Under the pieces are notes generated by a model. The model had not been told where the DNA came from and did not search any database. It saw nothing but the letters and a program-made list of their open reading frames with translations. From the NCBI GenBank assembly GCA_039638495.1, contig JBDIWN010000001.1, positions 1,582 through 65,581 of the forward strand: a stretch of DNA of 64,000 nt, read 5' to 3'. The stretch is from Candidatus Profundicultor thermophilus. Its GTDB lineage: Bacteria > Atribacterota > Atribacteria > Atribacterales > Caldatribacteriaceae. Numbering within the stretch: the first letter of the stretch is position 1; every line of letters starts with the position of its first letter. Shown piece after piece: positions 4,833-29,885 of this stretch. The position numbers and the translations under genes are program-made.

Positions 4833-5900
4833 ATGTCCAAGGTCGAAAAAAGGAATTTCCTGCTGACTGGATTTTTCTTTGTCCTTTTGATGGTGGGAGT
4901 GTGGTGGGCGCAGAATCATTTAAATGCGTATTTAGTGAGAATTTTTAACACCGCCTGCATCTATGTCGTGGCAGCAACGGCATATAATTTGGTGAACGGC
5001 GTTACGGGACAGTTTTCTCTGGGTCCGAATGGATTTATGGCTATTGGTGGGTATACGGTGGCTTTACTCATGTTGCCTCTTTCGCAAAAACAGGAAGTGT
5101 ACTTCTTGCAACCGCTCATGTGGCCCTTTAGTGCCTTCAGCTTTCCTCCCTCCCTTTTCCTTTTAGCCCTTGTTTTGGGTGGACTTCTGGCATCTCTGGT
5201 GGCAATTTGCATTGGGGTGCCCACTTTGAGGCTTAGAGGTGATTATCTAGCAATAGCAACCTTTGGCTTTGGAGAGATTATCATTGTTCTGGCAAATAAT
5301 CTTATTCCCCTTACCAATGGGGCTCTGGGAATTAAGGGCATACCCGAATATACCAACCTCTGGTGGACGGTGAACTGGGCGTTCTGGACCGTTTTTGCGC
5401 TTAAAAATCTGGTCAATTCAAGTTTTGGAAGGGCACTCAAGGCCATTCGTGAAGATGAAGTCGCTGCTGAAGCTATGGGTATTAACCTCTTTCGCCATAA
5501 ACTTCTGGCTTTCGCTTTGAGTGGGTTCTTTGCCGGTGTGGCAGGGGGACTTTTTGTAACGTTAATCAGCACCGTTTCTCCTACGCTTTTCACTTTCACC
5601 ATGACTTTCAACCTGCTTATCATCATCGTTCTGGGTGGATTGGGGAGTCTTACTGGTTCTACGGTGACGGCGATTCTTTTTGCGTTCTTGCAGGAAGGCT
5701 TGCGAGAAGTAGAAGCACCTCACGTCATTGGTTCCTGGACTTTTCCGGGTATTCCAGGCATGAGAATGGTGGTGTTTTCGGCTATACTGGTTTTGCTGAT
5801 GATTTTTTATCGTCGAGGTCTTTTTGGTCGACGGGAGCTATCCTGGCAGGATTTTGTGAATGTATGGTCCAGGGGGAGAAACGTTCATGGAATATCGTGA
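4833..5900 (+). CDS. livM: Branched-chain amino acid ABC transporter permease LivM
   Basis: 355-aa polytopic membrane protein with LivM-like segments (YNLVNGVTGQFSLGPNGFMAIGGY; LRGDYLAIATFGFGEII). Confidence 0.9.
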   Translation: MSKVEKRNFLLTGFFFVLLMVGVWWAQNHLNAYLVRIFNTACIYVVAATAYNLVNGVTGQFSLGPNGFMAIGGYTVALLMLPLSQKQEVYFLQPLMWPFSAFSFPPSLFLLALVLGGLLASLVAICIGVPTLRLRGDYLAIATFGFGEIIIVLANNLIPLTNGALGIKGIPEYTNLWWTVNWAFWTVFALKNLVNSSFGRALKAIREDEVAAEAMGINLFRHKLLAFALSGFFAGVAGGLFVTLISTVSPTLFTFTMTFNLLIIIVLGGLGSLTGSTVTAILFAFLQEGLREVEAPHVIGSWTFPGIPGMRMVVFSAILVLLMIFYRRGLFGRRELSWQDFVNVWSRGRNVHGIS

Positions 5901-6666
5901 TTCCCGGATGCTCTATCTTGACAAACTGACCATTGCTTTTGGGGGATTGCTTGCAGTCAATGACTTCTCTCTGGAAATATTTCCAGGGGATCTCGTGGGC
6001 CTCATTGGCCCAAATGGGGCAGGGAAGACCACCGTATTTAATTTAATTAGTGGTCAGTACTTTCCCACCAGGGGTAAAGTATGGTTTAACGGTCGGGAAA
6101 TTACAGGTCTATCGCCGGATAAAATTACTGCTTTGGGGATTGCTCGAACCTTTCAAAATATTCGGTTGTTCGGTGACTTGAGCGTTTTGGAAAATGTGCT
6201 GGTATCCTTTCATGTGCGCACCAAAAGTTCTTTTTTGTCCTCTATGTTTTGCCTCCCTCGTTCTTTACAGGAAGAAAAAAAGGTTCGGGAAGCAGCCTAT
6301 GCGCTCCTCGAAGCGGTGGGATTGAAGGATATGGCTTTTGAAAGTGCTAGATCGCTTCCCTACGGGCAACAGAGGCGTCTAGAAATTGCTCGAGCCCTAG
6401 CCACTTATCCTAAGCTTCTCCTTCTCGATGAGCCAGCGGCGGGAATGAATCCCCAGGAAACACAGGAGCTCATGGAATTTATTCAGAAAATTCGGAGAGA
6501 GTTCAGCTTGACCATTTTTCTCATTGAGCATGATATGAAAGTGGTGATGGGAATCTGCGAACGTGTCGCAGTGATGGATTTTGGACTTAAAATTGCCGAA
6601 GGAACTCCAGAAGAAATTCGTAATGACCCTCGAGTTATTGAGGCGTATCTGGGAGTGGAAGGCTGA
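5887..6666 (+). CDS. livG: Branched-chain amino acid ABC transporter ATP-binding protein LivG
   Basis: Walker A GPNGAGKTT, ABC signature LPYGQQRRLE, Walker B LLLLDEPAAG. ATG 5887 preferred (GGGGGAG upstream), overlapping the livM end. Confidence 0.9.
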   Translation: MEYRDSRMLYLDKLTIAFGGLLAVNDFSLEIFPGDLVGLIGPNGAGKTTVFNLISGQYFPTRGKVWFNGREITGLSPDKITALGIARTFQNIRLFGDLSVLENVLVSFHVRTKSSFLSSMFCLPRSLQEEKKVREAAYALLEAVGLKDMAFESARSLPYGQQRRLEIARALATYPKLLLLDEPAAGMNPQETQELMEFIQKIRREFSLTIFLIEHDMKVVMGICERVAVMDFGLKIAEGTPEEIRNDPRVIEAYLGVEG

Positions 6667-26055: not shown

Positions 26056-26621
26056 AGCTTTTTTCCTTTTTATCGCGTCGGGATAAAGTGGAACTCCTGG
26101 CCATTTTTTTGGGAGGACTGGTGGTGGTGGTCTTTGCCTTTTTTATGGCTCGAGGAGATCTCGATGCGTACGTGGAGGTTCTCTTGAAAGAGAGCATACC
26201 AGAGGAAGGAGGAACTCCTTTTTCTCCTGAAGTGCTTAATGAAGAGGTGGTAGAGGACCAAGAAACTCTTGCGAGTTTTCTGACTTCTCCTTCACCTTTT
26301 ACCATTCCCCGGGAAGAGCCGCCAACGATACCATTAGCCACTGAGCAACCAACCACTGTCCCATCTCCTTCTTTCCTACCGCAGCCTTCTCCTCGTGCGA
26401 CTCCCAGAGGAACGTTTTATGTCCAGGTGGGGGCATTCTCCAAGGAGAGCAATGCTCAGGGTATGGTTGCAACACTCAAGGGTCTCGGCTATTCAGGAAC
26501 CATAGAAAAGGTTTCTTCGCTTTATCGGGTACGGATATATGGTTTTTCCTCTCTGGAGGAGGCGCAAAAAGCGGTGAATCGTTTGAGAGCTCGGGGTATT
26601 GAAGCTTTTGTCAGTAAATAA
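26052..26621 (+). CDS. SPOR-domain membrane protein
   Basis: ATGA overlap with valS. N-terminal TM (LLAIFLGGLVVVVFAFFMA), Pro-rich linker, and a C-terminal SPOR-like domain (FYVQVGAFSKESNAQGMVATLKGLGY...YRVRIYGFSSLEEAQKAVNRLRARG). Confidence 0.75.
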   Translation: MKLFSFLSRRDKVELLAIFLGGLVVVVFAFFMARGDLDAYVEVLLKESIPEEGGTPFSPEVLNEEVVEDQETLASFLTSPSPFTIPREEPPTIPLATEQPTTVPSPSFLPQPSPRATPRGTFYVQVGAFSKESNAQGMVATLKGLGYSGTIEKVSSLYRVRIYGFSSLEEAQKAVNRLRARGIEAFVSK

Positions 26622-26631
26622 GGAGAGGGCG

Positions 26632-26994
26632 ATGACTCTTAAAGAAGTCAAAGAGATTCTGGGGGCCGAAGTTCTGGTAGGGGAAGCATTTTTGCAACGC
26701 GAAATTTGGTATGCTTGTGGGAGTGATTTGCTGAGCGATGTTTTGGCATTTGCCAAGGAACACGCACTTTTGTTAACTGGTTTGACCAATTCTCAGGTCA
26801 TCCGCACTGCGGAAATGATTGACCTTTTGGGAATTGTCTTTGTCCGAGGAAAGAAGCCGGAACATTCGACCATTGAACTGGCCGCCCTGAAAGGGATACC
26901 TCTTCTCACCACTCGTCTTCCCATGTATGAATCTTGTGGGAGGCTGTATCTTAAGGGATTGAGGGGATGTAGCGAATTTGGCTCCAATGCTTGA
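26632..26994 (+). CDS. DRTGG-domain protein (copy 1)
   Basis: Start ATG 26632 after AAGGAGAGGG. Pattern LGAEVLVG...CGSDLLSDVLAF...LLLTGLTNSQVIRTAEM...IVFVRGKKP. It parallels the second copy at 28781. Confidence 0.6.
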   Translation: MTLKEVKEILGAEVLVGEAFLQREIWYACGSDLLSDVLAFAKEHALLLTGLTNSQVIRTAEMIDLLGIVFVRGKKPEHSTIELAALKGIPLLTTRLPMYESCGRLYLKGLRGCSEFGSNA

Positions 26995-27430
26995 GGAGCA
27001 TCCTCTAATCGAAATGGAAAGGGAGATTGTCGGTGGAGACTTTCAGCGGGCTGGTGATGTTTCCAGTGAGCTTAAAAATATCCTACAGCGAGCCGGATTT
27101 CCTCCAGCGTTTAATCGCCGGGTGGTCATTGCTTCTTATGAAGCGGAGATGAACGTGGTTATTCATGCGTATCGGGGTGTTTTCAAGGCCAGCGTGTATT
27201 CTGACCGGGTACATGTGGAAATTGACGATCAGGGTCCGGGTATTCCGGATCTGGAATTAGCTTTTCAGGAAGGGTATTCTACCGCTCCACCCCACATTCG
27301 AGAAATGGGTTTCGGAGCAGGATATGGGTTATCCAATATGAAAAAGTGTTCCGATGTGCTGACGATTGATACCCGGGTTCAGGAAGGAACAAAAGTGGTT
27401 ATGGATTTTTTCCTCTTTTCAAACTCATGA
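26978..27430 (+). CDS. GHKL-type ATPase, RsbW/SpoIIAB-like anti-sigma serine kinase fold
   Basis: N box EAEMNVVIHA, G1 box DDQGPGIPD, G2 box GFGAGYGLSN. Single-domain ~150-aa protein. It overlaps the upstream gene by 17 nt (TTG 26978) or 8 nt (ATG 26987). Confidence 0.7.
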   Translation: MAPMLEEHPLIEMEREIVGGDFQRAGDVSSELKNILQRAGFPPAFNRRVVIASYEAEMNVVIHAYRGVFKASVYSDRVHVEIDDQGPGIPDLELAFQEGYSTAPPHIREMGFGAGYGLSNMKKCSDVLTIDTRVQEGTKVVMDFFLFSNS

Positions 27431-27447: not shown

Positions 27448-28800
27448 TTGGCCATTCAGGAAATTTTTCATTCGGTTCGTTTAGATGAGAGTAAATGCAA
27501 AGGGTGCACGCACTGTATCAGAAGATGTCCAACCGAAGCCATACGGGTCAAGGGTGGTAAAGCCTGTATCGATGAAAGGCGGTGTATTGATTGTGGTGAA
27601 TGTATCCGCACCTGTCCCAATTATGCAAAGTATGCGCAAACAGACCCTCTGGAAATCATTAAAAAATTCAAGTATGCTGTGGCTCTGCCTGCCCCTGCTT
27701 TTTATGCCCAGTTTAAATTCACCGTTCCTCTGGGAAAAATTCTGGGAGGGTTATTAAAAGTCGGTTTTCACGATGTCTTCGAAGTCGCCAGGGGTGCGGA
27801 AATTTTGGCAGAGGAAATCAAAACGTACCTTGAGGGGCGGGATGTTCCCAAACCAGTGATTTCCTCAGCCTGTCCGGCAGTGGTGCGACTTGTGGAGGTC
27901 AAATTTCCAGCTTTGATCGAGAACCTTCTTCCTCTTGATTCTCCCTTGGGGGTTGCAGCAAAAATTGCCCGTCTTCAAGCGATGAAGAAGGGGTATAGCG
28001 CGGATGAAGTTGGAGTGTTTTTTGTGACGCCTTGTCCGGCAAAGGTCACTGAGGTGAGACAGAGTGGCGATGAATTGGCTCGGATTGATGGAGCCATATC
28101 GATGAGCGGGATTTACTCCCGCTTGGTGAACGAACTGGGAGAAGTGGAAGAGGTTCCCCAGGTCCAGATGGCTAGTTTTAAGGGCATTGGTTGGGCGCGA
28201 TCTGGAGGTGAACAGGAGTCCCTGGGAGAGGGAGAGTACATGGCTGTGGATGGAATCCACTATGTGATTTCGGTCCTGGAGAAAATTGAAGTTGGAGAAT
28301 TGAAAGAAGTGGTATATTGCGAGGCGCAGGCCTGTGTGGGAGGATGCATTGGGGGAGTTCTTTCCGTGCAAAATCCCTTTGTGGCCAAGGTCAATGTGAA
28401 TCACCTGTTGAAGAAGTATGGTCGTTTTACGCCGATATCTGAGGAAGAGCTCAAGGTGTGGCGCAGGGCTTCGATTTTTGCTCGAACCAGAGCGTATGAA
28501 GCCAAGGAAGTCATGCGTCTTGACCAGGATTTGCACCGTGCTTTGGAAAAGTATCAGGCTATCGAAAAACTGCTGGAAAAATTACCGGGTTTGGACTGTG
28601 GTGCTTGTGGTTCGCCAACCTGCCGAGCCCTGGCGGAGGACATTGTTCAGGGAAAGGCAGTCGAGGTGGATTGTCCCTTTCTCCTCCGTAGCCATATGCT
28701 GGATCTGGCTATGGAAATTTATAGTCTGGCCAGCCGTGTTCCCCAAACCATGGTAAAAAAAGAAGAGGGGGCAAAAAAAGTTGAAAGTCAGGATTCGTGA
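27448..28800 (+). CDS. [FeFe]-hydrogenase-like protein, putative sensory type (2x[4Fe-4S] + H-domain + C-terminal Cx2Cx4Cx16C)
   Basis: CKGCTHCIRRCP and CIDCGECIRTCP ferredoxin motifs. H-domain motifs are SSACPAV, TPCPAKVTE and EAQACVGGCIGG. The C-terminus reads CGACGSPTCRALAEDIVQGKAVEVDCP. Confidence 0.75.
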   Translation: MAIQEIFHSVRLDESKCKGCTHCIRRCPTEAIRVKGGKACIDERRCIDCGECIRTCPNYAKYAQTDPLEIIKKFKYAVALPAPAFYAQFKFTVPLGKILGGLLKVGFHDVFEVARGAEILAEEIKTYLEGRDVPKPVISSACPAVVRLVEVKFPALIENLLPLDSPLGVAAKIARLQAMKKGYSADEVGVFFVTPCPAKVTEVRQSGDELARIDGAISMSGIYSRLVNELGEVEEVPQVQMASFKGIGWARSGGEQESLGEGEYMAVDGIHYVISVLEKIEVGELKEVVYCEAQACVGGCIGGVLSVQNPFVAKVNVNHLLKKYGRFTPISEEELKVWRRASIFARTRAYEAKEVMRLDQDLHRALEKYQAIEKLLEKLPGLDCGACGSPTCRALAEDIVQGKAVEVDCPFLLRSHMLDLAMEIYSLASRVPQTMVKKEEGAKKVESQDS

Positions 28801-29140
28801 CATTGTAAAGAATCTTGGAGCCGAGGTACTTGTTGAAGGTGGTATGGAGCATGGAGCGGTGCGTGGGGGGTACTGTGGAGATCTTCTCAGTGATTGTATT
28901 GCCAACGCCGAAGAAGGAAGTGTGTGGGTTACCATCCAATCGCATCCTAATGTGGTGGCGGTAGCATCTTTAGTCGGTATTCCCTGCATTGTGGTTACGA
29001 ATAACCAGGAAGTTCAGGAACAGACTCTGGAGAAAGCCCGGGAACAGGGGATTACCATTTTGAAAACGCCTCTCTCTTCGTTTGAGGCTGTGAGTGTGCT
29101 TTCCCAGCTGGGTGTTTCCGGGAAAAGACGACATGCCTGA
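28781..29140 (+). CDS. DRTGG-domain protein (copy 2)
   Basis: LGAEVLVEG...YCGDLLSDCIANAEEGSVWVTIQSHPNVVAVASLVGIPCIVVTNN, colinear with copy 1. TTG start overlapping the hydrogenase-like gene by 20 nt. Confidence 0.6.
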   Translation: MKVRIRDIVKNLGAEVLVEGGMEHGAVRGGYCGDLLSDCIANAEEGSVWVTIQSHPNVVAVASLVGIPCIVVTNNQEVQEQTLEKAREQGITILKTPLSSFEAVSVLSQLGVSGKRRHA

Positions 29141-29885
29141 AGGTGATTTACAAGTTTTTGTGGCGGATCTCCATATTCACAGTGTCCTGTCACCATGTGC
29201 CCAGCGAGAAATGCTTCCTCAGTGTATCATCCTTGAAGCTCTGGAGAAAAAAATTGACATGATTGCTCTCTGTGACCATAATGCGTGTGACAATGTGGAG
29301 GTAACTGTTGCTCTGGGTAACCGTTTTGGAATATGGGTGATTCCGAGTATCGAAGTGGAAACTCGGGAAGAAGTACACCTCCTCTGCTATTTTCCTACTG
29401 TTTTGCAGCTCCAAAACTTCAATCATCTCGTTTCTGCATCGCTTCTTCCCATGCCGTTGCGCGAAGATATATGGGGTGAAGAATGGGTGATTGGTGAAGA
29501 CGGGCAAGTCTCTGAAAAGAAAGCGCATCTTCTGACCTACCCGACTACTCTTTCGGTGGAGGAGGTCGTTACTTTGGTGCGCACCTTTGGCGGTGTGGTA
29601 GTTCCGGCGCATGTGGATCGTAAGCATTACAGCATTGTATCTCAATTGGGTTTTATTCCTCCGGACTTAATGATACCTGCAGTGGAAATTTCGCAAAGAG
29701 CGCCGTGGAAGGAGGTAGCCGAACAGCTTGGGCTTCAGCGCTTCCAGGTTTTGTGTTCTTCCGATGCCCACCAGCTTAGCGAAATTGGGCTGGGGAAAAC
29801 CTATTTTTTGATGTATGCCCTTAACTGGTCGGAATTTATGCTGGCTATGCATGGTGAGGCAGGAAGAAGTATTTTTTTACCCTAA
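29133..29885 (+). CDS. PHP-domain metal-dependent phosphoesterase
   Basis: Start ATG 29133 (8-nt overlap). PHP histidine motifs ADLHIHSVLSPC, ALCDHN, PAHVDR and SSDAH. Confidence 0.7.
   Translation: MPEGDLQVFVADLHIHSVLSPCAQREMLPQCIILEALEKKIDMIALCDHNACDNVEVTVALGNRFGIWVIPSIEVETREEVHLLCYFPTVLQLQNFNHLVSASLLPMPLREDIWGEEWVIGEDGQVSEKKAHLLTYPTTLSVEEVVTLVRTFGGVVVPAHVDRKHYSIVSQLGFIPPDLMIPAVEISQRAPWKEVAEQLGLQRFQVLCSSDAHQLSEIGLGKTYFLMYALNWSEFMLAMHGEAGRSIFLP

Follow-up and report, generated by a model that had tools for sequence, protein, structure and literature searches.

A putative sensory [FeFe] hydrogenase of group D (M2e), encoded in a conserved cassette of five genes in Candidatus Profundicultor thermophilus

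The window analysed here is a stretch of 64,000 nucleotides (nt) from Candidatus Profundicultor thermophilus, a member of the Atribacterota (GenBank assembly GCA_039638495.1, contig JBDIWN010000001.1, positions 1,582 to 65,581 of the forward strand). Positions 27448-28800 of the window hold a gene for an [FeFe] hydrogenase, the third of five close-packed genes on the same strand, which encode in order a DRTGG-domain protein, a SpoIIAB-like ATPase, the hydrogenase (HydS), a second DRTGG-domain protein and a PHP-family phosphoesterase. The cassette is preceded by tig, clpP, clpX, valS and a SPOR-domain gene, and is followed by mraZ, rsmH and ftsL. The reading preferred here, with a probability of roughly three in four, is that the protein is an orthodox group D (M2e) [FeFe] hydrogenase that works as a slow H2 sensor with its co-encoded partners. 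Group D has been known as a class since 2010-2020, and it is biochemically characterised through TamHydS of Thermoanaerobacter mathranii, its sole characterised member.

The hydrogenase gene and the motifs of its product are as follows.

27448..28800 (+): group D (M2e) putative sensory [FeFe] hydrogenase, 450 residues (Pfam, alignments, tree, AlphaFold2 model)
27496..27618 (+): two CxxCxxCxxxCP motifs, C17/C20/C23/C27-P28 and C46/C49/C52/C56-P57, predicted to bind accessory [4Fe-4S] clusters (translation, Pfam Fer4)
27862..27882 (+): H-domain motif 1, SSACPAV, S139-V145, with A141 at the CpI C299 position and C142 as cluster ligand (alignment to the Desulfovibrio hydrogenase)
28027..28053 (+): H-domain motif 2, TPCPAKVTE, T194-E202, with T194 at the CpI M353 position, C196 as ligand, and K199 (alignments)
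28201..28323 (+): group-D-specific alternative proton path, S252, E255, D268 and E292 (alignment with TamHydS)
28321..28356 (+): H-domain motif 3, EAQACVGGCIGG, E292-G303, with Q294 at the CpI M497 position and C296 and C300 as ligands (alignments)
28597..28674 (+): C-terminal Cx2Cx4Cx16C motif (C384, C387, C392, C409), predicted to bind an extra [4Fe-4S] cluster (PF04060, 50.7 bits; all four Cys invariant)

The open reading frame (ORF) is open throughout, as seen in its translation and in the ORF list, and starts with TTG, with a Shine-Dalgarno-like GGTGA 7 nt upstream. Pfam models match a Fer4 dicluster at residues 10-58, Fe_hyd_lg_C at residues 76-303 (110 bits, cut-off 22) and PF04060 ‘FeS’ at residues 379-411; no further domain, and in particular no PAS, kinase or phosphatase domain, was matched by Pfam in the 450 residues, in keeping with an earlier sequence-only reading of this DNA, which had noted that no such domain was fused to the protein. 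The best NCBIfam model is FeFe_hydrog_B1 (139 bits against a cut-off of 450) and the score with the group A model is 91.6 bits, where 406 would be required; NCBIfam contains no group C or D models and is thus unhelpful for classifying the protein. The AlphaFold2 model has a predicted local distance difference test score (pLDDT) of 92.4 and a predicted template modelling score (pTM) of 0.88, and its top Foldseek matches are the [FeFe] hydrogenases CbA5H, DdHydAB, HydA of HydABC and CpI, with a TM-score (query) of 0.58-0.66. Neither the sequence and profile searches nor Foldseek against a copy of the PDB turned up a group C or D enzyme among solved structures.

Alignment with solved hydrogenases places the three H-domain motifs. 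SSACPAV aligns on TSCCPGW of the Desulfovibrio enzyme, in the same register as its C178A variant TSACPGW (sequence and profile searches against solved structures), TPCPAK aligns on MPCIAK and EAQACVGGC on EYMACPGGC. Because the motifs align in this way, C142, C196, C296 and C300 occupy the positions of the H-cluster ligands, which in CpI are C300, C355, C499 and C503, and A141 that of the proton-relay Cys; A141 pairs with A137 of TamHydS in the pairwise alignment. The sequence-only reading had offered the alignment of these Cys with the H-cluster ligands as a check, and had reported Ala at the proton-relay Cys, Thr and Gln at the pocket Met positions, four retained H-cluster Cys, two N-terminal CxxCxxCxxxCP motifs and a C-terminal Cx2Cx4Cx16C motif. 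All of these hold, and translation recovers every motif at the nucleotides where it had been placed. The protein was also said to end about 50 residues past the C-terminal motif; the end is indeed close by, at a distance of 41 residues after C409.

Among 75 homologues, all eight Cys of the N-terminal motifs, the ligands C142, C196, C296 and C300, K199 and the four C-terminal Cys are invariant, as are P195, C196, A198 and K199 of motif 2 in the family alignment. The family consensus, from alignments of 15 and 75 members, reads ISSACPAV, TPCPAK, EAQACxGGCIGG and LPGLDCGxCGSPxC. As far as these alignments go, the unusual residues are a signature of the family and not peculiar to the window protein. 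At E202 (nt 28051-28053), which corresponds to CpI E361, one alignment (A1) shows Glu in its Atribacterota sequences alone, and Ser, Ala, Thr or Tyr in its other members.

In TamHydS, a proton path made up of S249, E252, D265 and E289 was proposed as specific to group D and probed by mutation (PMC10407848). These residues align pairwise with S252, E255, D268 and E292 of the window protein; in the 75 homologues, E255 and E292 never vary and D268 is kept in at least 90%. The proton pathway had been described as disrupted on the letters alone, which is correct in so far as the group A relay is absent, but not beyond that, as the relay is replaced by the Ser/Glu/Asp/Glu path, which is fully present.

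The class of the protein follows from comparison with TamHydS, whose sequence was taken from the supplement of PMC6984386 (the machine-read copy has 434 of the 435 stated residues, so numbering was matched by alignment). The two proteins are 49% identical over 444 aligned columns and are collinear end to end over their full length (E 2e-139). In a maximum-likelihood tree, for which the references were few (a single literature sequence each for groups D and A, together with paralogues found in the window genome and related loci), the window protein, TamHydS and 14 homologues form a single clade of 16 with a Shimodaira-Hasegawa-like approximate likelihood ratio test (SH-aLRT) support of 100, and a long branch parts this clade from PAS-bearing proteins and group A enzymes. 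The window protein is 24-28% identical to the three other hydrogenases of its own genome. Its nearest homologues, at 67-95% identity, come from Candidatus Caldatribacterium and related Atribacterota, followed at 46-52% by those of Bacillota and other anaerobes, and more than 8000 homologues share its length and domain make-up.

The published traits of M2e, or group D, enzymes are two N-terminal clusters, a C-terminal Cx2Cx4Cx16C motif (described for M2e and M2f enzymes), no PAS domain, loss of C299, replacement of M353 by Ser or Thr and a variable M497, and in genomic context a neighbouring histidine-kinase-like ATPase and a site upstream of a trimeric bifurcating hydrogenase (PMC8163306). Every one of the protein traits is found here (the clusters, Cx2Cx4Cx16C, the lack of PAS, A141, T194 and Q294). 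Of the context traits, which are a tendency and not a definition, the ATPase neighbour is present, and mraZ stands where an adjacent hydrogenase operon would be. The window protein shares with TamHydS a four-part architecture, Ala at C299, a hydroxyl residue at M353, the lack of PAS, the S/E/D/E proton path, the Cx2Cx4Cx16C motif and an adjacent GHKL ATPase gene (PMC6984386, PMC8163306). It differs in having Gln instead of Leu at M497, Thr instead of Ser at M353 and a Glu kept at the CpI E361 position, and its gene belongs to the Atribacterota and not the Bacillota, with no HydABC operon after it.

Group C (M2f) enzymes, which include TmHydS, Ruminococcus albus HydS and Thermoanaerobacterium HfsB, likewise combine N-terminal clusters, an H-domain without the relay Cys and Cx2Cx4Cx16C, and hfsB genetics suggest a regulatory role (PMC5707799). 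They carry a fused PAS domain, however, and are paired with PP2C/SpoIIE phosphatases, whereas the window protein has no PAS domain by Pfam and lies on a separate long branch of the tree, and assignment to group C was rejected on these grounds. Group A enzymes (CpI, DdHydAB, HydA of HydABC) share the H-domain fold, the four H-cluster Cys, the motif 2 Lys and a ferredoxin-like N-terminal domain. In contrast, the window protein has C299, M353 and M497 replaced, lacks the group A proton pathway and bears an extra C-terminal cluster domain; it is 24-26% identical to the group A enzymes of its own genome. A prototypical group A assignment does not fit, as SSACPAV, TPCPAK and EAQAC stand in place of TSCCPxW, MPCxxK and ExMAC. 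The sequence-only reading had suggested a putative sensory enzyme of the group C/D (M2e) type, which the identity to TamHydS, the tree and the architecture narrow to group D. There is very little doubt that the protein is a group D (M2e) [FeFe] hydrogenase of the TamHydS family, and the gene copy is intact and typical of this already described class.

The other four genes of the cassette flank the hydrogenase gene closely.

26599..26994 (+): DRTGG-domain protein 1, 131 residues, first gene of the cassette (Pfam PF07085, 25.7 bits)
26978..27430 (+): SpoIIAB/RsbW-like GHKL ATPase, 150 residues, candidate serine kinase and signalling partner (Pfam HATPase_c_2, HATPase_c)
28781..29140 (+): DRTGG-domain protein 2, 119 residues (Pfam PF07085, 38.4 bits)
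29094..29885 (+): PHP-family phosphoesterase, 263 residues from a GTG start, although the true start may be M14 (weak PHP match and metal site)

Genes of the cassette overlap (that of the ATPase with that of DRTGG protein 1 by 17 nt, and that of DRTGG protein 2 with the hydrogenase stop by 20 nt) or lie 17 nt apart. A promoter and terminator scan found no terminator-like site from one cassette gene to the next or from the PHP gene to mraZ, and promoter-like sites, at 7, were no commoner than the 6.0 of shuffled sequence. Inside the PHP gene, at 29254-29282 (+) and thus some 730 nt ahead of mraZ, lies a sigma-70-like promoter close to the consensus, TTGACA-17-CATAAT (11/12).

The partner proteins look functional, judging from the conservation of their predicted active sites. 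The ATPase matches the NCBIfam anti-sigma F factor model at 49 bits, below its cut-off, and for every residue of its N-box (E55/N59/H63), G1 box (D84xG86xG88) and G2 box (G111xG113xG115) the conservation among 78 homologues is 85% or higher. The PHP protein matches the PHP parts of TrlF, CehA and pAp phosphatase in NCBIfam, all below cut-off, and 85% or more of 73 homologues keep each of its metal-site residues (H27xH29, D61-H62, E87, H95, H173 and D224xH226). The two DRTGG proteins have in common a conserved D-L-L-S-D motif (D43-L44-x-S46-D47 in protein 1, D34-L35-L36-S37 in protein 2). In having a small GHKL serine-kinase-like ATPase, small single-domain proteins and a phosphoesterase, the cassette resembles the SpoIIAB-SpoIIAA-SpoIIE and RsbW-RsbV modules, by analogy only: it has the DRTGG fold and not STAS, PHP and not PP2C, and no sigma factor gene.

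The cassette was compared across 80 loci from named genomes of several phyla by ORF calling and phmmer. The five genes occur in nearly all of these loci, and DRTGG protein 1 keeps the same position in most. In four of them (L039, L069, L072 and L081, at about 5170-5980), from Thermoanaerobacterium- and Tepidanaerobacter-like genomes, DRTGG protein 1 and the ATPase are fused into a single protein of 269-270 residues. The hydrogenase and DRTGG protein 2 are likewise fused at L060:242-1954 (570 residues) and in the database proteins P0117 and P0118 (562-563 residues). These natural fusions are the best available evidence for contacts between the hydrogenase and DRTGG protein 2 and between the ATPase and DRTGG protein 1. 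That there is no fused output domain, as the sequence-only reading had put it, is true of the window protein and, to judge by these fused ORFs, not of the whole family; its suggestion that the output goes through separately encoded neighbours gains support from the fusions and from the presence of the cassette in nearly all loci. A search of a library of papers for DRTGG in connection with hydrogenases gave no relevant match.

Outside the Atribacterota, the genes immediately after the cassette are usually those for NuoE, a mini-GHKL ATPase, a 2Fe-2S ferredoxin, NuoF and HydA. All nine Atribacterota loci instead have the order valS, SPOR, cassette, mraZ and rsmH, with no hydrogenase downstream. 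The usual ten-gene locus appears to have been split in the Atribacterota lineage, since the half of the operon that otherwise follows the cassette lies on another contig (C8) of the window genome. This lineage-specific detachment from the hydrogenase operon, together with the position beside the dcw cluster, is the sole unusual point of the locus; it is mildly interesting and leaves the classification unchanged. A valS gene a few kb upstream of the cassette also occurs in Bacillota and Selenomonadales (L031, L044, L046, L047, L067, L076, L078, L086, L087, L093 and L098), in some cases with the SPOR-domain gene; as several such loci show it, the linkage of valS and cassette predates the Atribacterota arrangement or was transferred with it.

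In a survey of 86 genomes of the phylum, 31 of the 32 from the same order have one group D copy and the remaining one (G016, contamination 8) has two, and none was found in the other 54. That all genomes of the order retain the cassette, detached though it is from the hydrogenase operon, argues that it works in trans.

The 2.08-Mb genome encodes the maturases HydF (381 bits), HydG (493 bits) and HydE (360 bits), all above curated cut-offs, with HydG and HydE complete. The hydF gene is split over two contig ends (C76:9338-10189 and C26:22850-23284), which, as far as can be judged, reflects an assembly break and not a pseudogene. Four Fe_hyd_lg_C genes are present: the window gene, two on contig C32 and one on contig C8. 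Contig C32 (8327-15682) encodes a 589-residue group-C-type putative sensor with the motifs SSSCP and GPCIAK, Cx2Cx4Cx16C and PAS_9, 28% identical to the window protein, whose front end it shares, followed by a SpoIIE/PP2C phosphatase and by NuoE-NuoF-HydA (676 residues), a HydABC operon. As contig C32 carries this PAS-bearing sensor, the genome has both sensor types, group C and group D. On contig C8 (8108-16580), a second HydABC-type cluster consists of NuoE, a mini-GHKL ATPase, a 2Fe-2S ferredoxin, a 1028-residue NuoF fusion, NuoE, NuoF and HydA (588 residues); the 1028-residue protein joins NuoF with a GltD-like part of NAD(P)H oxidoreductase type. The opening part of this cluster corresponds to the genes that come after the cassette in Bacillota loci.

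These data suggest how the hydrogenase might work with its neighbours. The protein would bind two N-terminal [4Fe-4S] clusters, a complete H-cluster built by the HydEFG of the genome and a further C-terminal [4Fe-4S] cluster. The group A relay from Cys299 onward is absent and the S252/E255/D268/E292 path would take its place, so that a reversible, slow and high-affinity reaction with H2 is to be expected, which would suit reporting the H2 level rather than carrying metabolic flux. TamHydS itself forms an H-cluster and turns over slowly, with a Km(H2) of ~0.1 mM (PMC8163306, PMC13104023, PMC10407848). The H2 or redox state would most likely be handed on by protein contacts, through conformational coupling to DRTGG protein 2 docked on the hydrogenase, whilst DRTGG protein 1 would dock on the SpoIIAB-like ATPase/kinase and this pair would be modulated by the signal. 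With the PHP phosphoesterase as the opposing hydrolase, these proteins together would make up a switch of the kinase/phosphatase type. In most lineages, such a switch precedes and presumably controls a HydABC-type bifurcating hydrogenase operon or enzyme. In the Atribacterota order, where the cassette stands apart from the operon, control, if any, would be exerted in trans, and the cluster on contig C8 is the obvious candidate target. That the physiological role is H2 sensing through the cassette neighbours has, in our estimation, somewhat better than an even chance.

Several points weigh against this account. To our knowledge, signalling in vivo has yet to be demonstrated for any group D enzyme, and the sensory function is still termed ‘putative’ in the literature; nor do we know of an established signalling role for DRTGG domains. 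Any phospho-acceptor is so far hypothetical, the Pfam PHP match of the phosphoesterase is weak (19 bits, below cut-off), and as no hydrogenase operon follows the cassette in the window, its regulatory target is only a candidate. TamHydS is catalytically competent, so that a slow metabolic role may be possible. In addition, a 2026 study of TamHydS reported that 1 atm H2 fails to reduce the C-terminal cluster, which has hardly any influence on catalysis; in its authors' view, this challenges earlier ideas of signal transduction (PMC13104023).

Three other readings can be set against H2 sensing. The protein could be a slow but metabolic hydrogenase, for high-affinity H2 uptake or for H2 evolution, fed by ferredoxin via its N-terminal clusters, with neighbours that regulate or mature it. 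TamHydS does interconvert H+ and H2 near the thermodynamic potential and transfers electrons through its N-terminal clusters, which form the catalytic electron path (PMC8163306, PMC13104023), and the alternative proton path kept in the window protein implies selection for turnover. Yet the activities of group D enzymes are orders of magnitude below those of group A (PMC8163306, PMC10407848), the genome already possesses two HydABC-type enzymes, and the tight conservation with a kinase-like ATPase and a phosphoesterase, as well as the DRTGG fusions, fits signalling better, which makes a metabolic role unlikely. A sensor of redox poise (of ferredoxin or NAD(H)) via the Fe-S clusters, and not of H2 as such, would make the cassette a general controller of NuoF-type flavin modules, with the hydrogenase-like protein as one interchangeable input. 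The usual position of the cassette ahead of NuoE, mini-GHKL, the 2Fe-2S ferredoxin and the NuoF module agrees with such a role, but the conservation of the H-cluster ligands, K199 and the proton-path residues across the family, together with the presence of HydEFG, points to selection on a functional H2-reactive site and renders it improbable.

The replacement of the proton-relay Cys and of both pocket Met residues speaks for a Nar1/IOP-like Fe-S protein that has the hydrogenase fold and lacks the [2Fe] subcluster. This reading can scarcely be maintained, since all cluster ligands and the CN-binding Lys are invariant and a 49%-identical protein, TamHydS, assembles an H-cluster and turns over H2 (PMC8163306, PMC6984386). 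The sequence-only reading had named the absence of HydEFG as the sign of such a protein; HydE, HydF and HydG are all encoded in the same genome, and the Nar1-like assignment was rejected. The annotation as a group D putative H2 sensor, neither a catalytic HydA nor a Nar1-like protein, is secure.

The preferred reading, an H2-sensing group D hydrogenase with its cassette partners, bears on how these enzymes signal, a question that matters for group D since they are PAS-less and the latest biochemistry casts doubt on a role of the C-terminal cluster (PMC13104023). The comparative data name two candidate contact pairs, in which DRTGG protein 2 would be the partner of HydS and DRTGG protein 1 that of the ATPase. 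A bolder proposal, which we regard as a long shot, is that the five genes form an unrecognised partner-switching or phospho-relay module (SpoIIAB-like kinase, DRTGG acceptors or adaptors, PHP phosphatase) for which the group D hydrogenase serves as an H2-dependent gate. In the Atribacterota order, where it stands apart from the hydrogenase operon and directly upstream of mraZ and the division and cell-wall cluster, such a module might make growth or division, or gene expression at large, depend on the H2 level around a syntrophic organism.

For structure-function work, the Atribacterota sequences add variants derived from thermophiles, with Thr at M353, Gln at M497 and Glu at the E361 position. 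In one clostridial metagenome-assembled genome (L038:7410-9323), the group D gene is followed by a very divergent 637-residue hydrogenase-like ORF, which sits on a long branch of the tree, and not by the DRTGG and PHP genes.

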